The notes under the pieces were generated by a model, which ran no database searches, was not told the DNA's origin, and worked only from the letters and a program-made list of their open reading frames with translations. Source: Clostridia bacterium (lineage in GTDB: Bacteria; Bacillota; Clostridia; TANB77; CAG-508). From it: a DNA stretch of 64,000 nucleotides. This document shows positions 1-31,693 of this stretch, one piece after another; position 1 is the stretch's first letter, and each line of letters begins with the position of its first letter. Both the position numbers and the translations under genes were made by a program. Location of the stretch: positions 20,209-84,208 of the forward strand of contig JAFXOY010000124.1 of assembly GCA_017528375.1 (NCBI GenBank), given 5' to 3'.

Positions 1-2
1 TT

Positions 3-1043
3 GCATATGATAAACTTATTTAGTTATTGATACGAAGTTTAATTTAGCCTGATTAGGTAATGATTATGGGCGGAACCTATGAGACTCCTGTAACAGAAGG
101 TTTATTGGATTAGGACTTTGTTGAACAGTTAAAATTATCTGGTACGTTTAATTAGGACTCGTTTGATAGATAGTATAGAAGTATCTGGTCTGGTGATGCA
201 GAAAATGCATTTTTCTCATCTGAGAAATTTGATAAGTATAGAATTTTGCGGCAGCCATAGAATGAATATAGCGGGAGAAGTAGTAAAAATGCCTACTATG
301 TTATTGGCGTTGACGTAGGTCGTATAGGATGTACAACCTAGGCCATGGTTTGGAAGGTGACGCCGCAACCACAGGGTGTGGCTATTAAATCTTTAGTTAA
401 TTTATATACATATTAGGCAGAGCATTTTGAACAACAGGCTATCAATATTAAAAAGTTATATTATAAATTTAAAGCGCGTAAGGTTGCTATTGATACCAAT
501 GGTTTAGGTATTGGTTTACTTGATTTTATGGTGAAGGCTCAGTAGACATAGGATGGTGAGTATCTTCCGCCTTTTGGTATTGATAATGATTAGGAGGGTG
601 TTTATAAAAAATATTTTAAGGGCATAAATGATTTATAGAAAGATGCAATTTTTCAAATAAAAGCAAATGCTCCAATTAATACTTAGGCTTATTCCTATGC
701 TCAAACGCAAATGTCACGTGGTAAAATTAAATTTTTAATTGATTAGGGATAGGCTAAAGCAAAAATGATGGAAACAAAAACAGGGCAAAATATGTCAATA
801 GACCAAAGAAATGATTATTTAAGACCTTTTATTTTAACTACCATTCTTAGATAGCAAATGTTAAATCTTGTCTAGGATAATTAGGGTGTCAATATTATTT
901 TAAAACAAGATAGTCGAAGTATTAAAAAGGATAAATTTTCTGCTTTTGTTTATGGATTATATTTTATTAAACAAGAAGAATAGCGAATGAGAAGCAGGAA
1001 AAAGAGAGATATAAGTAAATTTTCATTTTTTACTGCTCAATAA
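3..1043 (+). CDS. terL: Terminase large subunit, C-terminal nuclease half (5' end outside window); needs TAG read as sense
   Basis: The frame is open from the window edge to TAA 1041-1043, with 20 in-frame TAG and no TAA/TGA (manual read). Motifs VIGVDVGR, KVAIDTNGLGIGLLD and KDKFSAFVYGLY resemble the terminase RNaseH-like nuclease. It lies directly upstream of the portal gene. Confidence 0.7.
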
Positions 1044-1116
1044 GGACAAAATAGTGTTAATTAAAAAAAATAGAAATTAAAGAAGAATAGAAATTAAAAA
1101 AGAGAAGAGGTATTTT

Positions 1117-1476
1117 ATGAGAAGTTCAAGGGCTTAGATAAAAATAGAATAGATATTAAGCAATGCGAATTTTAACTTCACAGAAGAATATAGTTTCCCT
1201 GATTTAATTGGACAAGGTGGACATGCTTTACGTTTTGATTTTGCTGTTTTTGATGATAATAATGATTTGTGGTTTTTGATTTAGTATCAAGGTATTCAAC
1301 ATTATAAACCAAAATCAGTCTTTGGTGGAATGTCTGGATTAAAGAAACAGCAATATTATGACATGTTAAAGCGTGAGTATTGTAAAAAACATGATATTAA
1401 ATTAATATTAATTCCCTATTGGGATTAGGCTCGTATTAATTACGATTATATTATGAATTTAGTAGATGTTTTTTAA
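1117..1476 (+). CDS. Stand-alone Vsr/PD-(D/E)XK-like nuclease-domain protein between terminase and portal (possible homing-endonuclease relic)
   Basis: ATG 1117 follows GAGG and the ORF ends at TAA 1474-1476, with 4 in-frame TAG. RFDFAVF..LI*YQGIQHY..KHDIKLILIPY aligns with the C-terminal domains of the ORFs at 32796-33623 and 44156-45127. Confidence 0.55.
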
Positions 1477-1494
1477 TACAATTGAAAGGTTTAG

Positions 1495-3144
1495 GTGGTC
1501 TTATTGATAGATAGAAAAGCTGAAATTAAGAAAAAGGGTTTTAAAATAACTCTTGCAAACGATATTAGCGAAGAATATACTCCAACAGACTTTTCAAAGA
1601 TAAAAATTGGTATCAAAACATTAGATGACGCAGTACTATCATTAGGAGAATTTAAGCGTTTAAACCCAAATTTAGGAGATAAAAAAGAAGTATTAAGAGC
1701 AATAACTTTTGGTGATATTAATAAAATGAGAGATATTTCCAACTTCTTTTATAAAACAAGCGGTATTTATGCAAGACTCTGTAGATATATGGCTTATTTG
1801 TATAAATATGACTGGTTTATTACTCCTTATATTGGTTATTGTGAAGGTTTAATTTAGAGCGATTCAGGATTTGGAAATCAAGATACTTAGGGTTAGAAAA
1901 AATAGCGGAAAAAACAGTTTTTAAATTTTTTTAAAGTGTTAAAATATTGTGAGTCTTTTTAGATTAAAAAGTTTTGCGGCTAGGTTGCCTTAAAAGTTAT
2001 TAGACATGGATGCTATTATGGATATTTAATTCCTGGTACAAATAGAATTAATGTTCAAGAGTTAGATCCTGCGTATTGTAGATCCAGGTTTAAAGTAAAT
2101 AATAGAGCCGTAGTTGAATTTAACATGAGATATTTTGACGATAAATTTAAAGATGATGGTTTAAGGTCTAAAATTCTTAATTTATTTCCAAAAGATTTTA
2201 AAAATGGATATAGATTATATAAGCAAGGGAAATTGCCTCCAATGTTTTCTGGTGATTCCCAAGGGTGGTATGTATTAGATCCAAGGGCGGCTGTTAAATT
2301 TAATATTAACGAGTAGGATTTTCCAGCATTTATTTCAGTTATTCCTGCCATTATAGACTTAGACGCTGCTCAAGACCTGGATCGTAAGAAAATGGCTCAA
2401 AGACTTTTAAAAATTATTATTCAAAAAATGCCATTAGATAAAAATGGTTAGTTAATATTTGATGTAGATGAAGCACAATAGTTACATAATAATGCTGTTA
2501 AAATGTTGAGCAGAGCAATAGGTGTTGATGTATTAACAACATTCGCGGACGTTGATGTCGCTGATATGTCAGACAGAGGTACAACAACAACTGTTGATGA
2601 ACTTGAAAAAGTAGAAAGAACAGTATATAATTAGGCTGGTGTATCTCAATTACAATTTAACAGTGATGGAAATATTGCTTTGACAAATTCTATATTAAAT
2701 GACTAGGCATCTATGTACAATTTATTGGTGCAATTTGAATCATTTTTAAATTTATTATTAGAACCATTTAATAAATCTCCTAAAAAATGTTGGTATCAAG
2801 CACAACTTTTAACAACAACAATATATAATTATAAAGATATGGCTAAATTATATGAGGGGCAAGCAAAAATGGGTTATTCTAAGATGCTTCCTCAAGTTGC
2901 TTTGGGTCAAACACAAAGCTCTATTTTAGCAAATGCATATTTTGAGAATGATATATTAGATCTTGTGCGCGTGTTCGTTCCACCTCTTACCTCTAATACG
3001 ATGAATGCGGAAGCCCTTCAGAATCGCGGCAGCACCAGTGGAAAACCTCTTAATCCTGGGTCAGATGACAAGTAGGCCGGCCGCCCTGAAAAGGAAGATA
3101 GTTAGAAGAGTGAGAAGACAATAGCGAATAAGGAAAGTATGTAA
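1495..3144 (+). CDS. Portal protein (TAG read as sense)
   Basis: The track ORFs 1495-1857, 2125-2316 and 2713-3075 are all in frame 1 and are separated only by TAG (13 in total). The ORF ends at TAA 3142-3144. At about 549 aa it sits between terminase and scaffold. The GTG 1495 start is uncertain. Confidence 0.65.
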
Positions 3145-3155
3145 AGGAGGAGAAT

Positions 3156-4481
3156 ATGAGTTTAGCGCATCAAAGTATTGCTACGATTAATTCTCCAGAG
3201 TTTGTTAATTTACAACCAATGGATATCAATCCCTTGATGTCCTCTTGTTAGATTAAAGTATTATATCTTGGAGAAAATCGTAATAGAAGCTATATTTCTA
3301 AATAGGTAGCTATGGAGATGGCAAAAACACTTCGTGGCGCTCCTATTGTTGGATATTACAAAAAAGATAAGCAGGATTTTGCAGATCATGGTGAACAAAT
3401 GATTTGGGACGATGAAGGCATTCATTTTAATACATTAACAAAACCCTATGGATTTGTTGCACCAGATGCAAAGGTTTGGTTTAAAGATTTCGAAGATTTT
3501 GATGATTTTGGAAATTCTGTTATTAGAACTTATTTAATGACTACTGGTTATTTATGGACTGGTCAATTTGAATAGGCTCAATCTGTTATTGATTCTGGAA
3601 AACCCCATTCTATGGAACTTGATGAAAAAAGTTTGCAAGGACATTGGGCAAACAATATTAAAGAAGATATGGAATTTTTTATTATCAATGACGCAATATT
3701 TTCTAAATTATGTATTTTAGGTGATGATGTAGAACCTTGTTTTGAAGGATCAGCTGTGACTGCTCCTCAAGTAAGTGCATCATTTACTTTAGACAAGTAG
3801 TTTAAGCATACTTTATTTAAGATGATGGAAGAATTAAAAGATGCTTTAGAAGGAGGCAATATAGTGGCTGATATGAAAGATAAGGCTCCTGATACTTTTG
3901 TTGAAGAAGTAGAGCAGACTGAACAAGAAGTAACTACTGAATTCACGGAAGAAGTTTAGGACAATAAAGATGAATCTTCATTAGATGAAAGTGATGCTAT
4001 TGTAGAAGATGCTGAATCTACATTTTAGGCTTAGGAAGCTGAGAACGTTTTTGAAGAGTCTGAGCCAGAAGCATCTGAAGAAAATGAAGAACTTAATGAA
4101 AAGTATACAGCTCTTCAAAAAGAGTATGATGATTTGCAATCTAACTTCGCTTCTTTACAAGAGTAGGTTGTTGAGTTAAGGGCTTTTAGGGAGGCTGTTG
4201 AAGACAAGCAGAAAGATGATTTGATTAATCAATTTTATATGTTATCTGATGAAGATAAAAGAGATGTCATAGCGAATAAGGCTGATTATACTCTTGAAGA
4301 GATTAAATCAAAGCTTGCTGTAATTTGTTTTGAAAAGAAGGTCAATTTTAATTTAGAAGACTCTTCAAAAAATGAAGAAGAGAAGGAAGAAAGTGTTTTC
4401 ACTTTTGATGTTGACCATAAGGAAGATTCAACGCCAGATTGGATTAAGGCGGTTGAGTCTACGATGAATAGTAGATTTTAA
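3156..4481 (+). CDS. Scaffolding-like protein (globular N-terminal half plus acidic coiled-coil C-terminal half)
   Basis: ATG 3156 follows AGGAGG. Track ORFs 3312-3575, 3612-3800 and 4221-4481 share one frame and are joined by TAG (about 8). The Glu/Asp-rich heptad-like region and the position before the capsid genes support the call. Confidence 0.45.
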
Positions 4482-4496
4482 TAGGAGGATTGTTAA

Positions 4497-5078
4497 ATGG
4501 CTATAAAGAGAAAAGGTTATGGACAAGTTGAACCTAATCATTTATCTGCACAGCACAATGGACAGATTTATGCTCAACTGCCTGCACAGAAAACAACTAC
4601 CACTGGTACAGGAACATCCGCTACTACTACAGTTACAAAAGTCGCGCAGTTGGAAAATGGGCAGTTTTTAAAATATAACTATGCTGCTGGAGAATGCACT
4701 ACAACAGGCGATATTGAGTGGATGCTTGTTTATAACGAAGAAAAATTATATGATGAAAGACGTCAAGCACATAAGGATTTTGCTATGCTTGCTTCTGATA
4801 TGTGCGATGGCACAATTTATCCACGTTTATTTAAAACAAATGTTGGTGATATTTTTACTACCAATACTTTTAGAACTTCTGGAGATGCTACTGTGGCGGG
4901 TCCAGATGCAGAAATTAATATGCCTGACGTAACAGTTGGTGATTATTTTATTATTGATAATGATGGTTGGTTAAAAAATAATACTACTACCAAGGGTGCC
5001 GGAATGGCTTGGCAGGCAGTTAAAGTTTATACAATGCCTGATGGACAGCCTGGCGTAAAGCTTCAGAGAGTACAATAA
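4497..5078 (+). CDS. Abundant head-associated protein (decoration or auxiliary capsid protein?), TAG-free
   Basis: Intact 193-aa ORF with an AGGAGG RBS, immediately upstream of the major capsid gene. It has no TAG and its Gln codons are mostly CAG. Confidence 0.5.
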   Translation: MAIKRKGYGQVEPNHLSAQHNGQIYAQLPAQKTTTTGTGTSATTTVTKVAQLENGQFLKYNYAAGECTTTGDIEWMLVYNEEKLYDERRQAHKDFAMLASDMCDGTIYPRLFKTNVGDIFTTNTFRTSGDATVAGPDAEINMPDVTVGDYFIIDNDGWLKNNTTTKGAGMAWQAVKVYTMPDGQPGVKLQRVQ

Positions 5079-5097
5079 TTAAAAGGAGGATAAGATA

Positions 5098-6180
5098 ATG
5101 GCTTTAGATAGAACACAATTAATGGCATTAGCTAAGGCTACTGCGAAAGCTTCATTAAATCCTTCTACAGCTTTTGCTTTTGGAGATAAAAATTTAACTT
5201 ATGAAGCTTTAAATGAAACATTTAGAAAAGAAATGAACGAACTGGCTGGTACTTATGCCCAGTATCGTGAGAACAAAAATTTAATTTTCAGCTTAATTGA
5301 AGTTGGTTTGGATGAAGTTCTTCCTGCAAAGGTTCTTCAGAACTATGGTCAGTTTGCTGATGTTAAGACCTATGCACAGGGCGATAAGCCTGTTTTCCGT
5401 GTAAGAATATCCGAAGCATCTAAGAAACGTGCTAAAGGGTTCGTTACAAGGGTTGGTCTTGCTGGTAGATATGAAGTATTCAAACTTGATGGATATACAC
5501 TGGAAGTTCCTACAAGTGCTTACGGCGGAGCTGCTCAAATTGGCTTTGAAGAGTTCCTTGATGGACGTATCACTATGAGTGACGTATATGACCTGGTTCT
5601 TGAAGGTCTTGATGAAGTTGTTTATAAAGAAATCGCTAAGGCTTTAGTTGCTATGGCGGACACTACAATTTCTACTGCTTATAATAAATCCAGTGCAGCT
5701 GGTTTTGATGAGGCAGCTTTTGATAGACTGGTTGCTACGGCAGACGCTTATGGTAAGAGTACAATTTATTGTACTTATGAGTTTGCTGCTCAAATTGCTC
5801 CTGGTACTGCTGGAAGCATTAACTGGAGTGCAGTTTCTGATAGAATGAAAGATGACAGATGGAATAATGGGTATTTTACTCTTTATAAAGGACACTCTGT
5901 AATCGTTCTTCCTCAGAGCTTTGAAGACACTGACAATTATCAGAAAGTAATCGATCCTAGATATGCTTGGATTATTCCTACTGGTGCTGAAAAACCTGTA
6001 AAGATTGCTTTTGAAGGTGCGGCAGCGGTTAAAGAACATGAAAATGATGACTGGTCAAGAGAAATTGAGACCTACAAGAAATTTGGTGTCGCTGTTTACA
6101 ATAAGATGATTAATCCTGGTATTTGTGTATATAAGAATACTGCACTTAGTATCTATAATACAGAAGGTACTTGGTCTTAA
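5098..6180 (+). CDS. Major capsid protein, TAG-free
   Basis: Intact 360-aa ORF with an AGGAGG RBS, followed by a strong terminator. The position and size fit an HK97-fold capsid protein. Its codon usage is GC3-richer than that of its neighbours. Confidence 0.7.
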   Translation: MALDRTQLMALAKATAKASLNPSTAFAFGDKNLTYEALNETFRKEMNELAGTYAQYRENKNLIFSLIEVGLDEVLPAKVLQNYGQFADVKTYAQGDKPVFRVRISEASKKRAKGFVTRVGLAGRYEVFKLDGYTLEVPTSAYGGAAQIGFEEFLDGRITMSDVYDLVLEGLDEVVYKEIAKALVAMADTTISTAYNKSSAAGFDEAAFDRLVATADAYGKSTIYCTYEFAAQIAPGTAGSINWSAVSDRMKDDRWNNGYFTLYKGHSVIVLPQSFEDTDNYQKVIDPRYAWIIPTGAEKPVKIAFEGAAAVKEHENDDWSREIETYKKFGVAVYNKMINPGICVYKNTALSIYNTEGTWS

Positions 6181-6197
6181 TTTTAAAAAATTTAATA

Positions 6198-6226
6198 GGG
6201 GAAGGCTTTGTACCTTCCCCTTTTTA
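6198..6226 (+). terminator. Rho-independent terminator after the capsid gene
   Basis: GGGGAAGG (6198-6205), a 7-nt loop and CCTTCCCC (6213-6220), followed by TTTTT. Confidence 0.8.
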
Positions 6227-6255
6227 TTGGTATGGAGATAAAAGGAGAAGAAATT

Positions 6256-6807
6256 ATGGAAAAAAATACACCTGTGAAGGTATTAAATAGAGATAATGGG
6301 GCGGTAGTTTATTCTATCCCTGAAATGAATGGATTAAGAAGAGTTTTTCAAGCGGGAGAAACTAAAGAGGTAACATTTGAAGAGTTACAAAAATTATCTT
6401 ATATTCCTGGCGGTAATGAATTATTAAGAGAGAATCTTGTTATTATAGATCAACCAAAAGCAATAGAAGAGTTGCTTGGTAGAGTTGAACCGGAATATAG
6501 TTATACAAAGACAGATGTTATTAAATTATTAAAATAGGGTTCTTTAGATGAATTTCTTGATTGTTTAGATTTTGCTCCAGATGGAGTAAAAGAATTAATT
6601 AAAACATTGGCAGTTGAATTACCTTTAAATGACGTTGCTAAAAGAGAAGCTATTTTTAATAAATTAGGATTTAATGTAGATGCGGCTATAAGAATACAAA
6701 AATAGGCAAATGAAGTTGAGCCTGAGAAGGATCAATCTAAGCCTAGCCGGAGGGTACAGAAAGTCTAGGAAAAACCCGCTAGCACCAGCCGCCGCGTTAT
6801 AAAATAA
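6256..6807 (+). CDS. Hypothetical head-module protein
   Basis: ATG 6256 follows AGGAG. Track ORF 6208-6537 continues in frame through 3 TAG to TAA 6805-6807. Confidence 0.55.
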
Positions 6808-6831
6808 TATTATTGTAAAGAGGGGGATAAA

Positions 6832-7164: not shown

Positions 7165-7301
7165 TGGAGCCTATTATAGTAATTGGATAGATAAAAATGT
7201 TCTCTATTCTTGTTGGAACGCTTCAAACATTACCTTTTGTTGAAGAAAATAAATCAGAGCAAAATAAAATAACAGAAGAATACATTAAGGAGGCGGAATA
7301 A
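7161..7301 (+). CDS. Small hypothetical protein (46 aa)
   Basis: Its start overlaps the previous stop as ATGA. It has one in-frame TAG and ends at TAA 7299-7301. Short, so weakly supported. Confidence 0.3.
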
Positions 7302-7302
7302 A

Positions 7303-10878: not shown

Positions 10879-11874
10879 ATGAAATTCGGTATACGTGAAT
10901 GCGCGAATATTGTTTTCCGTGCAAAACAAGAAACCACAATTGGAACAAATACATTCCATGTAGGTCAGCCGGTTCTTTATATTGATACAGCAACAACCTC
11001 TTCGATGGAGCAAGCTTCTGCAACTGTCTATGCACAGGGCGGACGTGGTAATGCTCGTTTAATTGCTTGGGAAGGTGACAAGACACTTACATTTACGGTA
11101 ACAGATGCTCTTATTTCTCCTGTGTCCTTAAGTATGTTAACTGGTGCTGGTCTTGTAAAAGAGAGCGGTAAAATGGTTCATGTTCATGCTACAAGTGCAG
11201 CTGTAATGGAAGTTAGCGGAAGTACTGGTACTATTGATTTAACAGATGCTCTTGCATCGTTTGGTGATATTACTTCTACTACTGCTCCTGTTACAATTGA
11301 TGCTGGTTCAGATGCTCCTCTGTTTATTATTAAAACAGAAGATGACGGTTCTATCACTGGTGATATTGTAACTTCTACTTCAGATATTACTTATTCTGCT
11401 GGTAAGTTAACTATTACTTCTCCAAAATGGAATAATACTACAAGTATTACAGCTTCTGTTAACGTATTAGTTGATTATTATGTAATTAAGAAGAGCGAAA
11501 CCGTATCTGAAATTCAGTTAACTGCAACTGATTTTGCTGGATATTATTATGTAGAAGCTGATACATTATTTAGATCTCAGTCTACTGGTATTGATATGCC
11601 TGCTAACTTAACATTCCCGAACGTTAAGGTGCAGTCTGGATTTACAATTACAATGGCTGGTACTGGTGATCCTTCAACATTTGACTTCACGATGGATGCA
11701 TTCCCTGGATATACATATTTCGATAAGACGAAACAAGTTCTTTGCGTAATCCAGGTTGTTGAAGATAGTTTATCTGCTACTGCTACTTCTGGTAGTGTTA
11801 TGCTTCAGAATAGTGCTCTTGAACATAGAGATCCGTTAGCACAGGATTCTGATATGTCTGAGCCAGCTGGCTAA
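10879..11874 (+). CDS. Major tail (tube) protein, TAG-free
   Basis: Intact 331-aa ORF with an AGGAGG RBS and a terminator downstream. It lies upstream of the chaperone-position genes and the tape measure. It is Thr/Ser-rich with an Ig-like C-terminal flavour. Confidence 0.6.
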   Translation: MKFGIRECANIVFRAKQETTIGTNTFHVGQPVLYIDTATTSSMEQASATVYAQGGRGNARLIAWEGDKTLTFTVTDALISPVSLSMLTGAGLVKESGKMVHVHATSAAVMEVSGSTGTIDLTDALASFGDITSTTAPVTIDAGSDAPLFIIKTEDDGSITGDIVTSTSDITYSAGKLTITSPKWNNTTSITASVNVLVDYYVIKKSETVSEIQLTATDFAGYYYVEADTLFRSQSTGIDMPANLTFPNVKVQSGFTITMAGTGDPSTFDFTMDAFPGYTYFDKTKQVLCVIQVVEDSLSATATSGSVMLQNSALEHRDPLAQDSDMSEPAG

Positions 11875-11944: not shown

Positions 11945-12622
11945 ATGGCTAGTGGAATTGAAAAGATATTTATTTAGGCGGTCAAACAACCAACTCAAGA
12001 TTTAAAGAAAAAATAGTTAAATAAATTTATTATAGAAGTAAAAAAACTTAGAGATCAAATAGATAAAATGCAAGAAACAATGTTATTTTATGAGAACGAA
12101 AGGAAAAGATTAATATCTTTAGGTTTTTCTAAAGAAACGGCTTCTCATTATATGTTAAATGCTTAGCATCTTGATATTGGTCAATTTTATCAATAGGGTT
12201 AGTTGCAAGAAAAAGCTTTGTAGGGTTATTAGCTTATTCAAAAACTTAGACAACAATTAACTAATGAACCAATTGTTTATCAAATTGGTATTGGATCTAA
12301 AAAGAAAGAGAAATTACTTGAAACAACAATAACGTATGATGAATTAGAACCAATGTTTTATATGGAGAGACGTGCGGATGGTTATGCTATTAGAATTAAA
12401 TTATCTCAACGTAAAATTATGTAGTTAAACAAAGAAAGAAAAGCTAAATTTAAAACTGAAGTTGATACGGTTAATATTTTTACAGCTGGAGCGAGCACTC
12501 TTTATTCATAGGTATATAGATATTTTTCAAACAATAGATTAACTCAGAAGGGTAATTGGGGTAACTTTTACTAGGTATATAGAAGTTTAGTACATTCTAG
12601 TCCAGAAGGTAACAAATGGTAA
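11945..12622 (+). CDS. Hypothetical tail-module protein (225 aa)
   Basis: ATG 11945 to TAA 12620-12622, with about 9 in-frame TAG. Confidence 0.5.
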
Positions 12623-13655: not shown

Positions 13656-16600
13656 ATGGCTACTAAAAATGGTGGTACAATTAGATTTGGTATCTAGTTT
13701 GATGTTAATAAATCATCTTTAAACTAGATAACCAAACAGCTTCAAGCTATACAAACAGCGGCTACGTCCAACAAAGATAGTGGACTGGCTAAGCAGTTTG
13801 ACTAGGCGGCGTCCGCAGCTAGGAAGCTTGAACAAATTGTAAATAGTTCATGGAATCATAAACTAGATCAATTAAATTTAAATAAATTTAATCAAAGTGT
13901 AAAAACTTCCTTTGGTAGTGTTCAGAATTTAAAAAACCAGTTAGTTGCAAGCGGAGCGTCTGGACAAGCTGCCTTTAATACTCTTGCTCATTCTGTTTTA
14001 AATACGAATGTATAGTTACGTTAGAGTAATACTTTACTTGATAGTATGGCTGTATCAATGAAGAATACTATTAAGTGGGGAATTACAGCTAGTATTTTTA
14101 ATAAAATAACTGGTTCTATTCAGCAGGCTTTTTATTATGCTAAAGATTTAAATACTTCTTTAACTGATATTAGGATGGTAACTGGAGCAAGTGCAGATGA
14201 AATGTAGCGCTTTGCTAAAACTGCTAACGATGTTTCTAAATCACTTGGTAGATCTACTCTTGATTATACAAGAAATGCTGTAGAATATTATCGTCAAGGT
14301 TTAACAGATGAATAGGTTGCAAAAAGAACTGAAGTTACATTAAAAGCTCAGAATATAACAGGCGCCGGAAAATAGATGGTTGATTATTTAACGGCTGTTT
14401 GGAATGGATTTAAAATTAATACTGAAGGTGCAGAGCAGGCTGTTGATTCTCTTGCTAAAGTTGCAGATAGTAGTGCATCAAATATGTCATAGTTAGCAAC
14501 TGCTATGTCCAAAGTTGCTGCAACTGCTAATGTTGTTGGAGTAGATTTTAATCAGTTAAATGCTATGATTGCTACTGTTGTAGCAACAACAAGATTGGCA
14601 CCTGAATCTGTTGGTACTGCATTTAAAACTGTTTTTGCTAGAATTAATGATATTAAAACTGGGGCAGAAGATGCAGAAATTAGTCTTGGTAATTATTCAG
14701 GAAGAATGCAATCTTTAGGTATTAGTGTTTTAGATACTGCTGGTAGATTACGTAATACTGGGGATGTTATTACTGAAGTTGGTTAGAAATGGAAAACTTT
14801 AACTAAAGAACAACAAACTTATTTAGCTGCTACTATGGGCGGTCAAAGACAGATTACTCAAGTAATGGCTTTGTTTGATAATTGGGAACAATATGTAAAA
14901 TTATTAAATACTTCTTTATAGGCTAACGGAACATTAAATCAGAAAAATGATATTTATCTTGAATCCATGGCGGCTCATATGTAGCAACTATCTACTGAAG
15001 CAGAAAGAATGTATAAGGCTTTAATAGATACAGATGCTATTAATCCTTTAATTGATGCATTAAAAGGCGCTTTAGGATTATTTAATAATTTTATTGAAGG
15101 TATTGGTGGTGGAACCAATGCTTTTATTAATCTTGGTGCTATTGCCGCCAACATTTTTAATAAACAAATTGGCGCTGGTATAAATAATGTTATTCAAAAT
15201 ATTGAGAGATTAAAAAGTAATTTAGCACAGGTTCAAGCTCAAAAAGAGTGGAGTAAATAGGCTTTAACAATGGCTTCAATAAACCACTCTACAAATAAAG
15301 ATAATATTTCTCAAAATGCATTAGAAAAATAGGCTCAAATTACACAAAGAACTTTATAGATTAGAAAAGCATTAACACAAGAACAATATAATCAAGTACA
15401 ATAGGCACAGCGTCAGATTGGACTTCAACAAACTCAAGTAGATTATATAGAAAGTTATAAACAGAATTTAAAAGAAGCTGGAATTAATCAGGAAAGCACT
15501 TTGGGTGTCGTTGAAAGACAAAGAGATAATTTAGAAAGCGTTATTGCTTTAACAAAGGATGTAAAAATTGATTTACAAGAAATTGCTTTATCTTCTAATG
15601 ATACAAACACTTTATTTAATTTATGGATAGAAAATTTAGATGAAATAAATAATAGATTAAGAGAAGCAGGAGTTTCAGAAGAAAATATTGATCAAATTAA
15701 TGAGTAGGTTTTAGATGCTATTGCTAATCAAGAATTTTCATTAACAAAAATAAATGAAATTTTAAATAATCATGGAGTAAATATTAAAGAAAATGAAAAA
15801 GCTTACAATAATTTAGTTGAAGCCGCTCGAAAAATGTCCATGATACAAGATGGAACTCTAGATAAAACAAAACAATAGATTTCATTAAGGTAGCAATTAG
15901 TAAAAAAAATACAAGATAGCGCACAGCGTTTAAAGACAATTCAAGGTTTAGTTAGAGGTTTAACAGGGGGCGTTCAAGCTGCTAGTGCTTTAATTGGAGG
16001 AATTTCTACTGGTATTGATAAGTCTGCAACAGCTTCATAGAGATTAAATGGTATCTGGCAGGGGCTTTCTGGAACAGTCGGCGGAATTGCAAATATTTTC
16101 TTACCTGGCTCTGGAATTTTGGTTCAAGGTATTTTTAGTTTAATCCAAGGAGGTTTAAATCTTTTAGGAGTATGGGACGATATTGAATTTGCAATAATGT
16201 CTTCCTAGGAAAAAATAGCAAAAGTAAGACAAGATTTATCGGATATTTCTAATGAAACCAATCCACATAAACGAAATATAGCTTCGTTGGAAGATAATGT
16301 TGAAGAGTTTGAAGAATTATATAATAAACGAAACCGTTTGACAGATGAATAGACCGAAAGATATCATGAACTAATAAATGAATTTACTCAATATAATGAT
16401 GCTGTTATAGCAGGGTATGATGCTCAAGGAAATGTTATTATAGATCATCAAGAAGCATTACGTGAAACAATTCAGTTATAGCGAGATGCAGCAAGGTAGG
16501 CAGCACAACGTGTCTTTGCTGAGAGTGGTGGCGGTAAAGATTATGCGGCTAGATTGGATAACACTGCAACTGCTCAAGCATCCGGATTTGCCTAGGCTGA

Positions 16601-19600
16601 ACAAAATATGTTAAATCTTTCGGCGACTGCGCCGACAAAGGCTAGACAATTAAAAACTTTATTGGATGTTTAGGGAGAATCTCCTTTTAATTTATAGGCT
16701 TTTTTAAACGATACTGCTTGGGAAAGTTATTACGCCAAACTTGAAGAAACCAATGCTTTTCAAACAGATTATTTTAAATAGCTTGGTTTCTAGAATGTTG
16801 AATCATTAAAAAATGCCATTACTGATGTTGTAAATGAATATTAGAATATTGAAACAGACGAATAGGCAGAAGAGATAAAAAATAAATTAATTGCTATTTG
16901 GAAAGCCTTCGCTGGAGCTGCTCGGCTTTAGGAGGACGAGGTTACTTAGAATATTATTAAATAGGCTCTTGTTACTTTAAATACGGCTTTATTAGAAGGC
17001 GCAGATTAGGCGACTGAAGCAAATGCTGCTTTGGATATAGCAGCTGATGAATTAGACAGGGTTTCTGAAGGATTAGAGTTATATTATGATAATATCTTTA
17101 ATTTATTAAAATATGGTCCAGACGGAGCAAGTGATGCTTATCAAGAATTATAGAAATCAAAATATTATGATTCGAGTCTTATAGACAATGCTTTAATGGA
17201 GTATTTAAAAACTTTTAAAGCGAAGGCAGAAGGTTGGGGACAAGACGTATTAGATTAGGCAAATAGATTATCTGATAATCAGGGGTTACAGCGAGCAGGA
17301 GAAGCTTTTATAAAAGCTATGCTGTCTACTTTAACGGTAGTTTCTCCAAATATTGATCAAGCTAAAAAACAATTGGCTTAGTTTGATGGTAATTTAAATT
17401 AGTATAACGAAGAGGTTATTAATGTTATTAATTAGATAATTAAAGACAGTTATACTGATTAGGAATTATAGAAATTAACTTAGACGCAGGTGGCAGCCCT
17501 ACAAGAGCTTTTATAGAAAATTTTTAATATAGATAATTTATAGATAAATTTAGATAATATTAAAGATGGTCAATTTGTTGAACAAATAAAAACAGAAGAG
17601 TAGGTTTTGAAAGAAGACTTACAAAATGCTTTAATTGAAACGTTTGGTGATTTAACAATTTCTCCTCAAAATTTAGGTTTTAGTATAAATTTACAAGGAT
17701 TAGATTTTAATTTAGATAGCTTAGAAAATGCAGATTTAGAATTATTAAAATAGCATTTTTCAGAATTAGATTTTTCAGAATTAATCTATCGTATGGCTAA
17801 GGAAGCCGAAGATCCGGCAGAAGCTTTTCATGCTGTTTTTTAGAAGTTAAAAAGTGATGTTTAGGGACTAGGAGAGGTAACATCAGATATAGGATTTTCA
17901 GATCTTTATGATGACGGCTGGGAAAAATTATTAAAAGCCGTTTAGAGCGGAGATGCATTATCTGAAAGTCAAGAAAATATATTAAATATTTTATAGCAAC
18001 AAGACTCTGTTTTAAAAGATTAGATAAGAGGGTCTGATGAGTATAATAAAAGATTAAAGACCCAAAAGACTGAAGCTTAGTAGATATATCAAAAGGAATT
18101 AGAGCGCAATAAGCAAATTCTATTACGTAGAAAAACTGTTCTTCAATTCATGTCACTCTTTGGATAGGAAGAAAAATATGCTTCTGAAATATTGCAAATC
18201 GAACAATAGTTAGCAAATATTTAGTATGAAGAAATTAGAATTGAACGAGATCAAAATTCTTAGTTATAGCAACGTAAAAAAATAGAAGAATAGATTTTAA
18301 AACTTAAACAAGAACAAACTGATAAAGATATTTCTGCAGTTAAAAACACCAAGGATACTGTTAAACATTTAAAAGACAGTGATGAAGATATAACTACCCA
18401 GGATTATGCTACAATGCTATTCTGGGAAAATAGAAATAGTGATCTGGCGGCTTTGGCTGGAGCGGACGGTGCTGGTCGTTTTTCATAGGCATACTTAGAT
18501 AAATTAAAGTAGTTATCAAAGGGTCAAGACGCTATTTTATCGGATTTATATTCTGATGCAGTAGAATAGGCATAGCAAGCTGTATTACTTGCTCAAGAAA
18601 ATTTAAATTAGATAAATAAAGAAATAGTCAGTACAACTGAATATAATCAAGCCAAATCTAGGCAAGGAGCGGGTCAATAGCTTGAGGGAGATTTAGAACT
18701 TATTGCCTCATATGAGAATCAATCTGAATTAATATCAAAGCAAACTGATGCTACGCAAAAATTAGAACAAGCTCAGCTTGAGTTGGCAGAGGCCCAGGGC
18801 TTAGCGGCAGAAGCGGCAAGAGAATAGAATATACCTTTATCTTAGTTAATAACTACTTTTGAATCTTTATCAGATAAAATTAGTTCTGCTGGTTTTATGC
18901 ATCCTTTAGAGGGTGACGATTTAACTTAGTGGGAAACTACTTTAGATAAGATTCTTTAGAGATATAGGGAATTAGGTCAATTAACTCCAGAGTTATAGTC
19001 TGCTATTTCTCTTCTTCATCTTACTGAATTATCCGGGACTAAAGAATATTAGGCAGCTTTACGTGAGGTGCAGCATACTTTCCATGAATTAAGATAGGAA
19101 GAATTATTGGCTCAATCTGAAAAGGCTGGAGAAAATCTTGCTAATAGTATTGTTTAGATTGATATTGAAAGCGACTTTGATAAATTTAAAGATGAAGTTG
19201 AAGAATTTTTAAATATCGAAAGAGAATTAATTATTAATGTTCATTCAGATGCAGAAGATATTTTTGAAAACCTTCAAAATTAGATGGAGCGGATTTATGA
19301 TGCTTCTTCTAAAATAGGCTAGAATTTTGTAGTTGCGGCAGATGACATCCGTTAGTTAAATGAAGTTTTTCCTGGTATAATTGAGGGGATGGAAGATCTT
19401 GGCGACGGAACGGCGCGATTAAATCAAGAAGTTGTTCAATAGGCTTTAGCAGGTATTAAACAAGTCGTTTAGGCTGACGCTCAAAGTGTTAACGCTCAAT
19501 TAGAATCTCAAGCTGCTTTACTTGACGCTAAAGCGGAAATGTATGGTCAAGCAGCTGAGGCTGCGGGAAGGCTGGCTCAAGCATAGACAACTGGGGCATA

Positions 19601-22600
19601 GATGTCTGCTCAAGACCAGGATGCAGTCTATGAAGCTTTAATGCATGCTAAGGCAGATAAGGCGGCTGATAGTGCAACTAGTTAGGTTGATAGTGCATAT
19701 GAAGCGGCTCAGCAAACCGCGGAAGCTGCTCAGCAGTCTGCATCAGAACAAGCTAGAATTTCAGATTAGTTAGGAACCGTTGTTTCATAGAACATCGCTT
19801 CTGCAGCATAGAGCAGTTTAACCAGCATGAGTGATGCTGCTTAGAATATTACAACTAATTTTAGCTAGGAAGCAAATGCTTCTAATCAACTTGGTGCTGT
19901 TATGGCTGCTAACATGGCTTCTTCGGCTCAGTCTCAAGCAGCTGCAATATCTGCATTGGCGCAAAGTGCGATCCAGAGTTTTAATGCAATAGCGGCCGCC
20001 AATAGAGGGGCTGCAAATGGACAGGTTGTTCGTGGTTCAGTAGGAGGCGCACCATATGTATATAGTTATGGAGGTGCTGGCGGCGGAGGCGTGTCTCAGG
20101 GCGTCTCAAGAAGAAGTATTTCTTCAACATACAGCGGGTCCCAAGGAAATATTGGTGCTACAAACATTTCTCAAAACGCAAAAGCAATAACTTCTACATA
20201 CGGGGCTAATTCTGCAGCTATTGCTGGAGCAAATAGCCAATTAAGTATGTTGGGCTTAACTGGATAGATTGGCGCAGATGGGAAGTATTATTCAAGTCAT
20301 CAAGAAGCTGTGAAGTCTGCTATTGAAGGTAGTGGTAAAACATATGCAGAAATAGCAGAGATGTTTACACAACTTAAGACTGCAGCCTAGGCTGGAGCAA
20401 ATAGTATTCGTGGTATGATTCAAGAAAATTCTTTAGATTTGTCAGGATTAGAGAAAGAACTTGGATCTGCGGCGGGCGGTCGTCCAAAGTCTAGTAAAGG
20501 CGGAGGTGGCGGTGGAGGTGGCGGAGGCAAATAGCCTGACGTCATGTAGCCTTCGGAATAGATAGTAGACCGCTACCACGATATTGATATGTAGCTCAAG
20601 ATGATTGCTGTTGACCTTGATAAATTATAGGAAGAGCAAGAAAGAGCGTTTGGTAAGGATTTAGTAAAGAATCTTAATAAACAGTTAGATGCATTAGAGC
20701 ATCAAAATGCTGCATATCAAACAAGACTTGAAATAACCCAAAAAGAAGCCGCAGAGATGCGTGCTCTTTTAGCTATGCAAGGTACCACTTTTGATGAAGA
20801 TGGTCTAATTAGTAACTTTGCAAATGTTATGTCTTCGAAATTAGCTGGCGTAAATGCGACGATAGATTATTATAATAGTCTCTCGGCTTAGGAGCAGGAG
20901 GCATATAAAGAAACAGTAGAAGCTGCTAAAGAGGACTACGAACATTTTAAAGAACAAATTGAACATTACGATGAATTAATTTCTGAAACGATTCCGGAAT
21001 TTGAGAAAAATATTCGTGACAATTTAAATAAGAGAATTGAAATTCAAGTTTCAAAATTTAAAATGTCTGTAGAGATTGAATTAGATCTCGCTAAAGCTGA
21101 AAAAGACTGGAATAAATTTAGAAAGAAAGTTATAAATCAGATTCGTCAAGATGATATCCTTGGTAATACTAAAGCATTATTTGAAGATTTAGCCACTTAT
21201 TATAGTGACGGTGGATTAAATGTTATTGGTGCTTTAACGAATCAATTAAATGGTACTTTAGACCAGTTGCATCAAATTGATACTTTTGGAACATCTTCTG
21301 TATATGGAGATAATAAATCTAAAGCGGTTGAAGATTTAAAAACATTTTTAGATGAATTAATTAGTAATTTAGAAGATGTTGAAGACCTTAATGATGAAAT
21401 TGAAAATTCTATTTTTGATGCTATTGATAAAGCACAAGATGCTTTTGATGACCAGGTAGATACTTTCGAACACATATCAGATGTATTAGACCATAATGTT
21501 AAATTGGTTAAAATGTTATATGGAGAGTAGGCTTACGATGCTCTTGGAAAATATTATTAGCTTCAAGAGGCTAATAATAATTAGCAATTAGATTTCTTAA
21601 GGCAACAAAAACAGCTTTGGTATGATAGGATGATGCTTGAATACCAGCGTATGAATGAATTAGAGCCTGATTCTGATGAAAGAAAGAAAGTTGAAAAAAG
21701 GTTTAAATAGTATAAATAGCATTGGATGAAGAGTACGAAAGAGTTAAATTCTTTATTAGAGTCTTCTGTTCAAAATATTATTGATAAATACGCTAATGCT
21801 ATTAATAATATATTTAATAATTTAAACAAGAGATTAACTGGCGGGAGAGGATTAGAATATATATCTGAAGAATGGTAGTTAATTAATAAAGAAGCTGATA
21901 TGTATCTCGATAGAGTTAACTCTATGTACGAAATAGAAAAACTTCAAAACGCTTTTAGAGATGCTATTAATGATAATGAGGGTAATATTAAGGCGCAACA
22001 ATCGTTAAATGATTTAATGTAGGAAGAGTTAAAATACTTACGAGATAAAGATAAGTTAACTCAATATGATGTTGATAGAGCAAACGCTTTATTACAAATT
22101 GAAATCAAACGATTAGCTTTACAAAATGCTCAACAAAATAAAACTAAATTACGATTAAGAAGAGATTCTCAAGGTAATTATAGTTATCAATATACGTCTG
22201 ATTAGGGCGCTATCGCCAAATCTCAGGATTAGTTAGCTTAGGCTCAAAATAATTTATATAATTTAACTAAAAATGCCTATAAGAGTAATTTACAAAGTTT
22301 CTATGATATTTATGAAGAGTGGGTTAATAAGGTTAAAGAAGTCTAGAATAGAAATGATTTAGATTCTGAACAAAAGGCTGCAAGAAGAGCAGAATTAACT
22401 GAACACTATGGTAATATAATTAATGGTATATTATCTTAGAATGAACAACTTCGTCAGTTTTTAACATAGGATACATTCAATGAATTATTAAGAATGTATC
22501 TTAATGATATTGAAAACTTTAGATTTAAATCTGAAGAAGAAAAAGCTATTTTTTAGAGATTAGTTGAGTCAATAAAAAATGATTCCTCTATTATGTCTTC

Positions 22601-23837
22601 TGCTTTAGTAACAGATATGGGCAATGCTACTACAGCGATGGCAACAAACATGAATAATGCTACTATAGCAATGGCATTATCTTCTTTAGAAATGAGAGAT
22701 AAAGTTAAGGAGTATTTGGATAGCTTGACAGAATATTAGAAAAATACAGTAATGAGCAATATGGTTTTATACTGGAATTCTGGTATTCAGAGCATGATGG
22801 ATACTATAATTGGTGAGGGCGGATTTAGTATAGTTGTTAAAAGCTGTTTTACAGAACTTGAAAGAGCTGCTTTGTAGTTTGAAAAGTCGTTAAGAGATTT
22901 AGCGGCAAAAGCAGGAGTTAGCTTAGGAGACATTGATAGTTTATTAAAGACAGATGTTGGTGAAACTAAGGCTTTAATAAAAGAAAATGAAACTTTAATT
23001 AAAAAATATGGAGATGAAATTTCTACTATTGGAGATTTAATTGAGAAAGTAAAAGGCTTAACAGAGAAATACGGTGATGCTAAACAAGCAGCTATTGATG
23101 CGGCGACTGAGGCTAAAAAATACTGGGAGGCTGAACAAAAGGCTGCTCAGGATGCTGCGGAGTAGGTAAGAAAAGCTACTTAGGCAAAGAGTAAGTATAA
23201 CGAAAGTGGATATAATGGAACAGTTGGTGCTACTGTATAGGCGCCGTCTTCTTCTCCTTCTAACGGGGGCGGAGGTGGATCAGCGAGTTCTGGAGGAGGT
23301 TCTGCCGCAGTTGCTGGAGCAGCTTCAATAGGCTACACTTATTATATAAGAGGTTGGAATGCAAGTGGGGTTTATAAAAGATAGGGACCATTAACAAAAG
23401 GAGCAACAGATGCTTTTCCAACAGTTGGATGGAAGCCAAATATAGAGGTTACTCGTAGTGATGGACAAAGACGTTATTTTGGACCAGGACAAGTTTACGG
23501 TTTTAAAACTGGCGGTTATACAGGAGACTGGTCTGGTACAGATGGTAGATTAGCCATGTTACATCAAAAAGAATTGATTTTGAATGCAGAAGATACGTAG
23601 AATATTTTGAAAGCAGTTGATGTAACAAGGATGATTGATGATATGTTATCTAGTATAGGAACCAATGTAAATATGGCAAATATATTAAGTAATACAAATA
23701 CTTCAGATGGCGGACTGTTAGATCAAAATGTACATATTACTGCTACATTCCCGAATGTTACAAATCATGCTTAGGTAGAACAAGCATTAGAAACTTTAGT
23801 TAATAGAGCAAGTCAATATGCTTTTAGAAACAGATAA
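13656..23837 (+). CDS. Tail tape measure protein, about 3393 codons (TAG read as sense)
   Basis: ATG 13656 follows AGGAGGG. Track ORFs at 14505, 15009, 15501, 19902 and 21063 are all in the same frame. My manual read found only TAG interruptions (roughly 110-120) up to TAA 23835-23837. A TP901-type TMP core is present (SKVAATANVVGVDFNQLNAMIATVVATTRLAPESVGTAFKTVFARI), along with a typical C-terminus (GGYTGDW..LHQKELILNAEDT). Confidence 0.75.
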
Positions 23838-23875: not shown

Positions 23876-23953
23876 GACAATATAATATAATATTTATTTA
23901 TTATTTTTGATTGTTTATATAAAAATGAGAGAAAAGGAGGAACCTAAGATAGT

Positions 23954-29900: not shown

Positions 29901-30742
29901 TTACAGCTTCTTCTGGTACAATAGCAGGCTGGACCATTACTTCAAATCAGATATCTAAAAACGTAACACTTAGCGGTAGTACATATCAAGCTTTTATTTA
30001 TGCTCCAGCTAGTCCGGGGGCTGGCACTGCAGCTTTTGGAGTAAGTAAAACTACAGGATCTACTACAACTTATCCGTGTTATATTCGGTATGATGGCGCT
30101 TTAGTTGCAACAAGCGCTATAATTACAGGAGGATCAGTAAATATTAACGCGTCTTCTTCAGATTTTCAATATATACAATTAAAGTATACGACATCTAAAT
30201 TATCTGCTACAATGGCTCCTAATTTTATAATGATGGACGATGGTGTTAACTATGTTACCACTCATTTACGAAACAGTGGAGTAAGGATACACACTGATTG
30301 TCAACTTGTTGTTTCTGGGGCTTCAACTCATAATTGCTATCTTTAGGTATACAAGCCTGGTGCCTCTGGTATAGCGAATGCAAACATAGGAAAATCATAT
30401 TTAGATATTAATTATATTAAATATTATGATAGCTGCACAAATGTTTCTGATAAACGTTTTAAAACTAATATTAACCCAATCTCTTATGAGCAAGCGTTAA
30501 ATTTTGTTATTAATGCTAAACCAGTATCTTATGAATTAATTGATTCACCTTTAAATGTCCATCACGGAATGGTTGCTCAAGATATTAAAAAATATGTAAA
30601 TATACAAAAAAATTGGGGTCTTGTTCAAGAAGACGGAGATGGATTTTTATCTTTAAATTATATTGAAATGATTCCTGATATGATTGTTGTGATGCAACAA
30701 TTGGTTAAATAGATAGAAGAACTAAAAGCGAAAACAACATAA
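23954..30742 (+). CDS. Giant tail tip / receptor-binding protein, about 2262 codons, with C-terminal S74-type intramolecular chaperone domain
   Basis: ATG 23954 follows AGGAGG. Track ORFs 25517, 26789, 28097 and 29252 all lie in frame 2 and are joined only by TAG (about 55), ending at TAA 30740-30742. The C-terminus (SDKRFKTNI..HHGMVAQDI..LNYIEMIP..IEELKAK) matches the tail-fibre/endosialidase chaperone domain. The N-terminus has an OB-fold hub-like motif (KYKVQYQDGYWYAYSG..VYILVPNGD). Confidence 0.65.
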
Positions 30743-30752
30743 GGAGGTAATT

Positions 30753-30977
30753 ATGTTTTTTATTTTGGAAACACAAGTAGATTAGAGTGGTAATGGAGCA
30801 ATCCTTCCTGCTGTAACAAAACAGAATAGGAATTAGGCGGAAGCAGCATATTACAGAATTTTGCAATACGCAGCCGTTTCTAGTGTTTATAAACATGGAG
30901 CAATTATATTTAATGAAGATTGTATGCCAATTATGTATAAAGTATACGATCACGAAAAAGAAGAAGAAGAAGAGTAA
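30753..30977 (+). CDS. Small hypothetical protein (74 aa)
   Basis: ATG 30753 follows AGGAGG. It has 2 in-frame TAG and ends at TAA 30975-30977. Confidence 0.45.
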
Positions 30978-31002
30978 TTAAATAAAAGGAGATAAAAGGA
31001 TT

Positions 31003-31206
31003 ATGAAAGAACAAGATTTTGATATTATGTACAACGATTATTTACAACAACTTGTTGATATTATAAATAATTCTGGTATGCCATTGACAGTAACTGCCAA
31101 TGTTTTAAAAGATTTATTAAATCAAGTTACTTCTAGCTTACAAGAAAAATTAGATAAACATCAAAAAGAAAAAGAATAGGCACAGAAAAAAGAAAAAGAA
31201 AATTGA
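31003..31206 (+). CDS. Small hypothetical protein (67 aa)
   Basis: ATG 31003 follows AGGAG. It has 1 in-frame TAG and ends at TGA 31204-31206. Confidence 0.45.
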
Positions 31207-31279
31207 TTAATTTGTTTCAGGACAACCACAGATAATTAATTTTCTTCTTTTTAGAATATAAAAGAAGGAGGGAATGAGA

Positions 31280-31693
31280 AATGCTTGAATTGTTTAATCA
31301 ATTTACTTTATAGCAAATAATAGTATTTATTATATTATTAGCATTAGCCATTAAGGGATGTGTTTCTTTTTTTGATTGGATGACAGGAAAAAATAAAGAT
31401 ATAGCAAAAAAAATGAATAAGTCAATTGAAATATAGACAAATATTGAAAAACATACTTATTAGATTCAAAACATTAAAGATTCAATATCAAGCCTGGCAA
31501 GTAAAATAGATTTATTGGTAATGAGTGATAGGGACGCCATTAAAGCCTTTATCACTCGTTAGCATCATTATTTTTGCTACCAAAAAAAATGGATTGACGA
31601 TTATAGTTTAGATTGCATAGAGAGACGATATGTACACTATAAAGAAGAATAGGGCAACTCTTTTATAGATGGGCTTATGGAAGAATTACGTAA
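31280..31693 (+). CDS. Membrane-anchored small protein (holin-like or lysis-associated candidate)
   Basis: ATG 31280 follows AGGAGG. An N-terminal hydrophobic helix (IIVFIILLALAI) is followed by a coiled-coil-like segment. It has 5 in-frame TAG and ends at TAA 31691-31693 (counted codon by codon). Confidence 0.45.

Follow-up and report, generated by a model that had tools for sequence, protein, structure and literature searches.

Amber (TAG) is a sense codon in an SPbeta-like gut siphophage and probably stands for glutamate in its clade

Introduction

In phages whose code differs from that of the host, Borges et al. observed only the reassignment of TAG to glutamine (Gln) and of TGA to tryptophan (Trp), and the isotypes predicted for 180 phage suppressor tRNAs are Gln, Trp, Ile and Tyr, with no glutamate (Glu) among them (PMC10879173). 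Phage amber recoding has accordingly been treated so far as TAG meaning Gln, explained by glutaminyl, along with tryptophanyl, synthetases that are unusually easily hijacked. An example is phAss-1 (OQ749652; Babkin et al. 2023, PMC10607447), a 136-kb gut siphophage with a tape measure of 3149 amino acids, 36 tRNAs, three tRNA(CUA), and TAG read as Gln; NCBI files it in the 'Caudoviricetes code 15 clade', and both the phAss-1 paper (PMC10607447) and a 2026 jumbo-phage survey assume code 15. Here we analyze a 64-kb stretch of contig JAFXOY010000124.1, referred to as the window, which is part of an SPbeta-like siphophage of about 130 kb from gut metagenomes (G+C 31.7%). TAG is a sense codon in this phage, and in its clade the codon probably stands for Glu, not Gln.

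The window phage shares much with the code-15 gut phages (crAss-like phages, Lak megaphages, and the Garnet and Topaz clades of Borges et al.). TAG is enriched in structural and lysis genes while early genes are largely compatible with the standard code, a phage tRNA(CUA) is encoded without a dedicated synthetase, and the same timing model would apply. It differs from them in the meaning of TAG, which we infer to be Glu, and in its suppressor, which is tRNA-Glu-like and has a long variable arm. With phAss-1 and the proposed 'Phassvirus' it has in common a genome of ~130–138 kb, a tape measure of more than 3100 amino acids, the same overall synteny, genes for anaerobic ribonucleotide reductase, TAG in the terminase, portal, tape measure and tail genes, and tRNA arrays with tRNA(CUA), including a long-armed one of 91 nt. 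In contrast, the terminases of the two phages are only 42% identical (tblastn), TAG in phAss-1 means Gln both by our test and by the published account, and the phAss-1 suppressors adjoin nrdD, where the window phage has none. SPbeta and its relatives (VRE9_4, H1, Geobacillus virus E3, the Lactococcus 949 group) resemble the window phage in their Yon/Yom virion families, in YorF and YorH, and in genome size, but use the standard code.

In the nuclear code of peritrich ciliates (NCBI table 30), TAA and TAG are read as Glu through a suppressor derived from tRNA-Glu. That code is eukaryotic, nuclear and genome-wide and covers both TAA and TAG, whereas the present case concerns a virus, TAG only, and probably a host with the standard code. 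In the searchable full-text literature we came across no phage reported to read amber as Glu. TAG as a sense codon in such phages is already known, since phAss-1 has been published, NCBI recognizes a code 15 clade, and the gene caller of a public collection already runs these genes through TAG, writing Q; it is the Glu meaning that appears to be new. An original prediction, made on the window itself, had proposed that TAG is translated and cited amber recoding in gut phages. The precedent is apt, a distantly related TAG-recoded phage, phAss-1, having been described in 2023. The prediction left open which amino acid is inserted, and its precedents all imply Gln.

Results

TAG is read as a sense codon

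When only TAA and TGA are taken as stops, open reading frames (ORFs) of 100 codons or more amount to 110% of the window length, compared with 63% under the standard code, and the longest ORF increases from 1338 to 3394 codons. The 56 gene models built in this way (19,903 codons in total) contain 303 in-frame TAG and not a single internal TAA or TGA, which bears out the prediction that gene fragments are split by TAG alone. Every model likewise ends as predicted, 43 in TAA and 13 in TGA, and none in TAG. The genes upon which this evidence rests are the following.

3..1043, plus strand: large terminase, C-terminal 346 codons with 20 TAG (5.8% of codons); phrog_24618 (7e-43, across 12 TAG) and phrog_5909
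1726..3144, plus strand: portal, 13 TAG; phrog_2739 (2.7e-67), a single stretch over residues 2–471
13656..23837, plus strand: tape measure, 3393 codons, 117 TAG including the tandem at 18078-18083; TIGR01760 (1.6e-32, residues 151–484) and PF10145
23954..30742, plus strand: large tail protein, 2262 codons, 49 TAG
31800..32288, minus strand: RuvC-like resolvase, 6 TAG; PF02075, residues 6–150 of 162
34223..34462, minus strand: small gene with TAG at codon 2 behind a GGAGG ribosome-binding site
34890-35378, minus strand: NrdG-type activase, 1 TAG; Fer4_12 (1.3e-38)
35951-38191, minus strand: anaerobic ribonucleotide reductase NrdD, 2 TAG; PF13597 (4e-148)
46322-48142, minus strand: RecJ-like DHH exonuclease, 6 TAG; DHH and RecJ_OB

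The tape-measure frame has the predicted length, and its TAG count lies within the 110–120 that had been estimated; the length of the tail protein was also correct, the count of about 55 TAG given for it being slightly too high. For the terminase fragment the earlier figures agree exactly, the tandem TAGTAG lies in frame, and TAG does follow the start codon of the small minus-strand gene (GGAGG..ATG TAG). The full terminase gene, taken from a matching contig, has 579 codons and 24 TAG. No TAA or TGA occurs in the tape-measure frame, although 169 and 373 of them lie in the remaining two frames of this stretch. Given the base composition, one expects 210 TAA plus TGA in the tape-measure frame, and the probability of finding none is approximately e^-217, so chance can be excluded.

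Reading through TAG also restores full-length proteins, as had been claimed: the portal, the TP901 tape-measure core, NrdD, NrdG and a RecJ-like protein were matched, and RuvC scored 21.9 bits, just under the Pfam cut-off of 22.2. A DnaB domain was also matched among the restored proteins. The number of TAG spanned by one uninterrupted profile match is 13 for the portal, 12 for the terminase, 7 for the TIGR01760 tape-measure core and 5 for RuvC, which is matched over its full length. Pfam gave nothing useful on eight virion proteins, for which PHROGs and NCBIfam supplied the matches. Comparison of table 11 with a TAG-sense table, based on ORF lengths and profile matches, thus upholds the sense reading, and neither in-frame TAA or TGA codons nor independent truncated fragments were found.

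Fragmentation of the module under table 11 is what one would see if TAG were a real stop, the genes then belonging to a decayed or misassembled phage, being pseudogenes, or being expressed by low-level readthrough. We consider the probability of this to be negligible given the codon counts above. In addition, the window sequence recurs at 99.99% identity (2 mismatches in 15 kb) in ENA and Logan assemblies made independently, the TAG sites are either conserved or swapped for sense codons in thousands of relatives, and the genome contains a cognate tRNA(CUA).

TAG positions are occupied by glutamate codons in relatives

We aligned the window genes between positions 3 and 11874 codon by codon with those of three relatives (L009, L011 and L012; L numbers denote related loci) at 55–85% protein identity. 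Among 197 aligned cases, the partner of a window TAG was GAA in 84, GAG in 20, TAG in 43, an Asp codon in 17, a Lys codon in 8 and a Gln codon in 4. The reverse comparison, of TAG in the relatives with the codons of the window, gave Glu 60 times and Gln 7 times. The resulting profile for TAG (E.68, D.11, K.05, Q.03) is very close to the one that real Glu codons give (E.68, D.08, K.06) and far from the one for real Gln codons (Q.69, E.08). Log-likelihoods (lnL), scored against substitution profiles measured on the same alignments, were best for Glu, with Asp worse by 185 and Gln by 247, and the majority residue at 70 TAG positions was E at 50 and Q at 1. Because TAG positions are filled by GAA and GAG in relatives, TAG probably stands for Glu. 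The ratio of GAA to GAG mirrors ordinary Glu codon usage, which speaks for selection on the amino acid and against mutational proximity.

As a control, the analysis was extended to about 190 loci of related genomes, taken from the neighborhoods of gyrB, the capsid gene and a DUF2828 gene, using non-overlapping sets of TAG-sense ORFs; genomes were tested one by one, and a subject genome contributed a single count to any TAG position. The window phage gave a value of lnL(E) minus lnL(Q) of +53 over 133 positions. Eleven close relatives were also of the Glu type, with values from +6 to +68 (among them L011 +68, L012 +40, L009 +31, L236 +27, L036 +25, L193 +14, L199 +11, L244 +7, L251 +6). Approximately 20 more distant genomes, with capsid proteins 51–57% identical, were clearly of the Gln type, at −17 to −91 (L220 −91, L206 and L215 −81), and phAss-1 scored as Gln at −12. 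The same method thus recovers the published Gln assignment where it applies and yields Glu for the window. Non-recoded relatives have ~1–2.5 TAG per 1000 ORF codons, and the capsid identities of several of them are intermediate between the two recoded groups.

The few TAG of certain low-TAG relatives (L044, L047, L048, L049, L057, L058 and L063) align mostly with Tyr or Leu; these may be real stops run through by the ORF definition. Tyr as the meaning of TAG was considered and rejected.

Amino acid composition agrees with Glu. Virion genes contain 6.18% E and 4.29% Q, compared with 7.77% E and 3.11% Q in the other genes. Adding TAG to E brings the two sets to matching values (8.74% in virion genes and 8.22% in the others), whereas adding TAG to Q leaves them mismatched (6.85% and 3.55%). 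The proportion of TAG is negatively correlated with that of E (rho −0.40, p 0.005) and shows no anticorrelation with that of Q (rho +0.28). When the window is compared with the distant standard-code phages VRE9_4 and Geobacillus E3, E is the top residue at TAG (31/217, and 15/55 in well-aligned context); against the same phages, the top residue at TAG of phAss-1 is Q.

The alternative that TAG is Gln (code 15), as in crAss-like phages, Lak, phAss-1 and the public databases, has precedent on its side, since all published phage amber recodings are to Gln and phAss-1 and some 20 relatives in the family score as Gln. The phage carries a tRNA-Gln(UUG), and TAG16 of NrdD aligns with Q in PDB 8p23. 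We nevertheless judge this alternative quite improbable. Gln makes up 3% of the partners of window TAG as opposed to 69% for genuine Gln codons, with a likelihood deficit of 247 that is still 53 in the wider test; the Q plus TAG composition is anomalous; and the tRNA(CUA) is unlike the tRNA-Gln of these genomes at the first base pair and the discriminator. Code 15 calls for Gln at TAG positions in homologues, where we find Glu at 68% and Gln at 3%.

Some points do count against Glu. The signal from the distant homologues is weak, even though it runs in the same direction. NrdD TAG16, in addition to its Q partner in 8p23, aligns with S in 9d3x, single distant sites of this kind being uninformative, and the second NrdD TAG falls in a variable region of the solved structures. 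The assignment to Glu furthermore derives from evolution and tRNA resemblance. Features of the tRNA that belong to the same side of the balance are given below.

A tRNA(CUA) with resemblance to tRNA-Glu is encoded outside the window

No tRNA was found in the window by ARAGORN or Rfam, consistent with the original prediction that a suppressor is absent there. The machinery is missing only from the window, however, in that one tRNA(CUA) lies ~30 kb past its end in the same phage genome. The genome was walked by exact look-ups of TAG-free proteins, which covered window-equivalent positions from −25 kb to +100.5 kb. A tRNA-Lys is located upstream of the window at about −11.8 kb. A minus-strand array at ~92.7–98.1 kb window-equivalent, situated amid early-type genes, contains at least 12 tRNA genes, among them Asn, Gln(UUG), the CUA tRNA, Thr, Ser, Glu(UUC), Pro, Trp, Leu, Met, and a Met(CAU) with a 453-nt intron. 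A single tRNA(CUA) was seen in the portion of the genome that was read.

L174 14348-14440 (window-equivalent 94121-94213), minus strand: tRNA(CUA), found by ARAGORN and by Rfam (45.6 bits), cloverleaf

In this 93-nt tRNA(CUA), the acceptor helix has 8 bp, the D stem 3 bp and the extra arm 6 bp, and the anticodon loop reads CUCUAAA. Its acceptor stem and the context of its discriminator agree with those of the tRNA-Glu(UUC) encoded by the same phage. It shares several features with this tRNA-Glu(UUC) and with the CUA tRNAs of L244 (77 nt) and L251 (74 nt): an acceptor helix lengthened by a U:A pair through a 5' U, a G:U wobble near the top of the acceptor, a trailing U, and a CCA that is not encoded. 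The 5' acceptor strand of the L244 CUA tRNA, TGGCTCG, is identical in the tRNA-Glu of the window phage, and the best matches of this L244 tRNA among annotated GenBank phages are tRNA-Glu (Lactobacillus prophage Lj928, 79% over 63 nt, E 2e-6; Streptomyces phage pSt2308). The tRNA-Gln(UUG) of these genomes, with A1-U72 and G73, is unlike the CUA tRNA. The D-loops of the Glu-type CUA tRNAs are 2 nt longer than those of phage tRNA-Gln, and Gln-type genomes (L261, L266, L285 and L291) have different CUA tRNAs in which CCA is encoded. The relatives also encode a tRNA-Glu(CUC), which a single substitution at position 36 would convert from CUC to CUA. These resemblances point to an origin of the tRNA(CUA) from tRNA-Glu and support, but do not prove, the Glu meaning drawn from the comparison with relatives.

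Other properties of this tRNA(CUA) fit such an origin less well. It is more diverged than the copies of the relatives and has an extra arm like that of class II tRNAs (Ser, Leu, Tyr). Read in the canonical register, it shows G3:U70 and A73, both of them alanine-like determinants. By crude alignment its lead over other isotypes is narrow (26.0 for tRNA-Glu, 24.3 for a Trp tRNA). Its anticodon arm matches the arms of many unrelated suppressors; IMG/VR searches with this arm and with that of a relative returned mostly unrelated phages, so widely are such arms shared, and are uninformative on identity. When the 93-nt tRNA was blasted against annotated phages nothing informative was found.

These properties raise the alternative that the long-armed tRNA is charged as a class II tRNA with Ser, or with Ala through G3:U70, so that TAG would be Ser or Ala. 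The 93-nt cloverleaf with its 6-bp variable arm and 3-bp D stem would suit the former, G3:U70 and A73 the latter, and seryl-tRNA synthetase ignores the anticodon. Ser and Ala each make up only about 2–3% of the residues aligned with TAG, though, and in the CUA tRNAs of the Glu-type relatives the position of the G:U pair is not fixed and the long arm is missing. We regard this alternative as very improbable. Phosphoserine, inserted by way of a P-loop kinase near the array, was rejected for want of support; the kinase adjoins an RNA ligase, as in tRNA-repair pairs.

A further alternative is mixed decoding: the CUA tRNA would carry Glu, some of it amidated to Gln, or there would be competition between two tRNAs, and both residues would be found at TAG. 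Firmicute hosts commonly form Gln-tRNA from Glu-tRNA with GatCAB (PMC2811023). The acceptor stem of the CUA tRNA is topped, in one register, by a U:A pair, a GatCAB determinant, and the avoidance of TAG in abundant virion proteins and core enzymes, described below, suits a codon of imperfect fidelity or efficiency. On the other hand, the substitutions seen at TAG positions have a profile that cannot be told from the one for pure Glu codons, and the enlarged D-loop and extra arm would be expected to hinder GatCAB. Mixed decoding thus seems to us improbable, and decoding as Glu is preferred.

No release factor or aminoacyl-tRNA synthetase was detected by Pfam among the called genes, in loci covering ~96% of the genome (a gap of about 4.4 kb remaining at window-equivalent 100.5–105 kb), and the region of a relative syntenic to this gap contains no release-factor or synthetase gene.

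Irregular tRNA genes occur in and around the array

A Glu-like tRNA(CUA) gene of one relative (L296 14746-14894; ENA ERZ27297789 k141_2238175) is split between anticodon nt 34 and 35 by a 76-nt element, which is itself tRNA-like, with its own 7-bp acceptor stem and T arm. The spliced form of this tRNA gave nothing informative when blasted against annotated phages. In the window phage, Glu-like halves at L174 ~14493-14465 and 14290-14250 (minus strand) flank the 93-nt tRNA(CUA) and lack a usable anticodon arm. Adjoining the tRNA array are a P-loop kinase (AAA_33/KTI12), an Rnl-type RNA ligase (PF09414) and a DUF2828/TROVE-like protein.

L167 14565-15041, L167 17142-18152 and L174 10824-12308 (window-equivalent ~76.7–80.3 kb and 90.6–92.1 kb): kinase, ligase and DUF2828 loci

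This group looks like a tRNA-repair set and might join tRNA halves after excision of a nested tRNA.

The tRNA-Met(CAU) at L174 ~15353-14827 (minus strand) has its 453-nt intron in the anticodon loop, with an ORF for a PDDEXK_5 endonuclease. Rfam marks odd tRNA-like pieces at L174 13818-13902 and 15364-15421, and tRNA half-genes in swapped order can be recognized by eye near L174 14000-13910. A tmRNA gene is found inside the tRNA array of a relative (L080 1492-1900).

Long extra arms recur in the suppressor tRNAs of the family, in both CUA and UCA forms, on bodies that are otherwise class I-like (Glu/Gln-like or Trp-like). Besides the tRNA(CUA) at L174 14348-14440, the long-armed suppressors are these.

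L252 and L282 8068-8158
L013 (phAss-1) 12442-12532
L192 7800-7892
L057, L058 and L071: tRNA(UCA)

Since suppressors with a UCA anticodon are present in the family, some relatives seem to suppress TGA.

TAG is concentrated in structural and lysis genes

Per 1000 codons, there are 25.6 TAG in the virion genes and 4.5 in the minus-strand block. TAG is present in 18 of the 21 virion genes, and 21 of the 35 minus-strand genes are without it; immediately beyond the window, the endolysin, the tail genes and the genes of the holin region contain it as well. In the virion and lysis genes it accounts for 29% of all 'Glu' codons. The recoded codon is thus concentrated in structural and lysis genes while early genes can largely be read in the standard code, the distribution expected under the timing model of Borges et al., as judged here from sequence.

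Within the virion module, three genes lack TAG, these being the YonB-like capsid gene, the adjacent head gene and the tail tube gene, which likely encode the three most abundant virion proteins; their neighbors contain 1–6%. The core replication enzymes are also free of TAG (a polymerase-size ORF, GyrA, GyrB, ligase and helicases). Avoidance of TAG in abundant virion proteins fits with a codon that is costly or slow to decode.

4497-5078, plus strand: TAG-free head gene
5098-6180, plus strand: TAG-free YonB-like gene (PF27364 YonB), probably the major capsid protein
10879..11874, plus strand: TAG-free tail tube (YomU_Tube); phrog_2729
39044..42988, minus strand: TAG-free ORF of 1314 codons, polymerase-size, the largest TAG-free replication gene
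58027-59994: ligase, TAG-free
60343-62673: GyrA, TAG-free
GyrB fragment, TAG-free

The phage and the remaining genes of the window

Two contigs from one sample, overlapping inside the window by the k-mer length, have a joint span of ~130 kb. If TAA and TGA alone are stops, positions 1 to 31727 of the plus strand form a tightly packed series of virion genes, and the minus strand from 31800 to 64000 carries a second series. Precomputed Pfam assignments, including neighboring genes, place the SPbeta families YonG_N, YonD_N, YonB, YomW, YomV_2nd, YomU_Tube and YomO in the virion module, and YorF and YorH in the replication block. The terminase gave tblastn matches that include terminases annotated as YonF; the standard-code relatives among them, at 30–45% identity, are the Enterococcus phages VRE9_4 and H1, Geobacillus virus E3, the Lactococcus 949 group and Bacillus phages. 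The family is very large, its terminase homologues numbering more than 7,900, and many of these lie on contigs of 130–149 kb. Megablast of 12 kb of the window against GenBank phages gave a single match, the 12-kb fragment MT836163, and an IMG/VR search with a tail protein gave one standard-code relative and nothing more. Exact matches to the end of the window were absent from IMG/VR and from JGI metagenomes.

The host is probably a Bacillota species with the standard code. A search of bacterial genomes was not informative on this point, 47 of 47 matches being phage-like contigs binned into metagenome-assembled genomes of many unrelated taxa. No integrase or repressor was noticed in the window. 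The remaining features are listed here.

1117-1476: small gene between terminase and portal, 4 TAG
3156..4481, plus strand: YonD-like head protein, 8 TAG; PF27290 YonD_N
35382-35954, minus strand: TAG-free membrane protein
48139-48846, minus strand: family-8 glycosyltransferase, 5 TAG
56395..57348, minus strand: GIY-YIG domain protein, 10 TAG, the most TAG-rich gene of the minus-strand block

At the position equivalent to the small gene at 1117-1476, a homing endonuclease is annotated in Enterococcus phage VRE9_4. The portal may start further upstream, in the ORF 1486-3144. Two minus-strand genes, at 32796-33623 and 44156-45127, form a paralogous pair with repeated Cys-rich motifs (W.C.C.CG) and a common C-terminal DUF5889-like part.

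Discussion

Decoding of TAG as Glu could come about as follows. The suppressor would arise from tRNA-Glu(CUC) by a change at position 36 and would be charged by the glutamyl-tRNA synthetase of the host. If the host makes its Gln-tRNA from Glu-tRNA with GatCAB, the suppressor must then avoid amidation. In bacteria, GatCAB recognizes tRNA-Glu by an additional base in the D-loop and by the first base pair and rejects it, and the GatCAB tail lies near the variable region (PMC2811023). The enlarged D-loop of the suppressor, together with the long variable arm in the window phage, might block conversion to Gln if the host uses the indirect pathway. The host would stop at UAG until the phage tRNA accumulates, after which the suppressor would outcompete release factor 1, and late genes would become translatable only after this build-up, as in the timing model of Borges et al. 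Where the suppressor gene contains a nested tRNA, RNase P and RNase Z might excise the latter and the phage ligase might join the halves; the code switch would then depend on a phage enzyme.

More broadly, amber may have been reassigned at least twice in one family of large gut siphophages, once to Gln and once to Glu, a statement that rests on identity classes, with the Glu suppressor a remodelled tRNA-Glu whose production is possibly coupled to the RNA-repair enzymes of the phage. Taken in its entirety, this proposal is speculative, and we think it unlikely that all of its parts will hold.

The assignment has consequences for public data. Code 15 is the sole option that gene callers have for TAG, and Gln therefore stands at every TAG site in the public proteins of this abundant clade. 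If TAG is Glu, 117 residues of the tape measure and ~3% of virion-protein residues are wrong in public databases, and such mistranslation affects structure prediction, the identification of metaproteomic peptides, and phylogenies. Within peptides, E and Q differ by 0.98 Da. An amber suppressor of the tRNA-Glu type with built-in anti-determinants may also interest those who engineer genetic codes. For the phages themselves, the Glu meaning would, if true, indicate that the glutamyl system can be hijacked as well, and that one phage family solved recoding in two ways.

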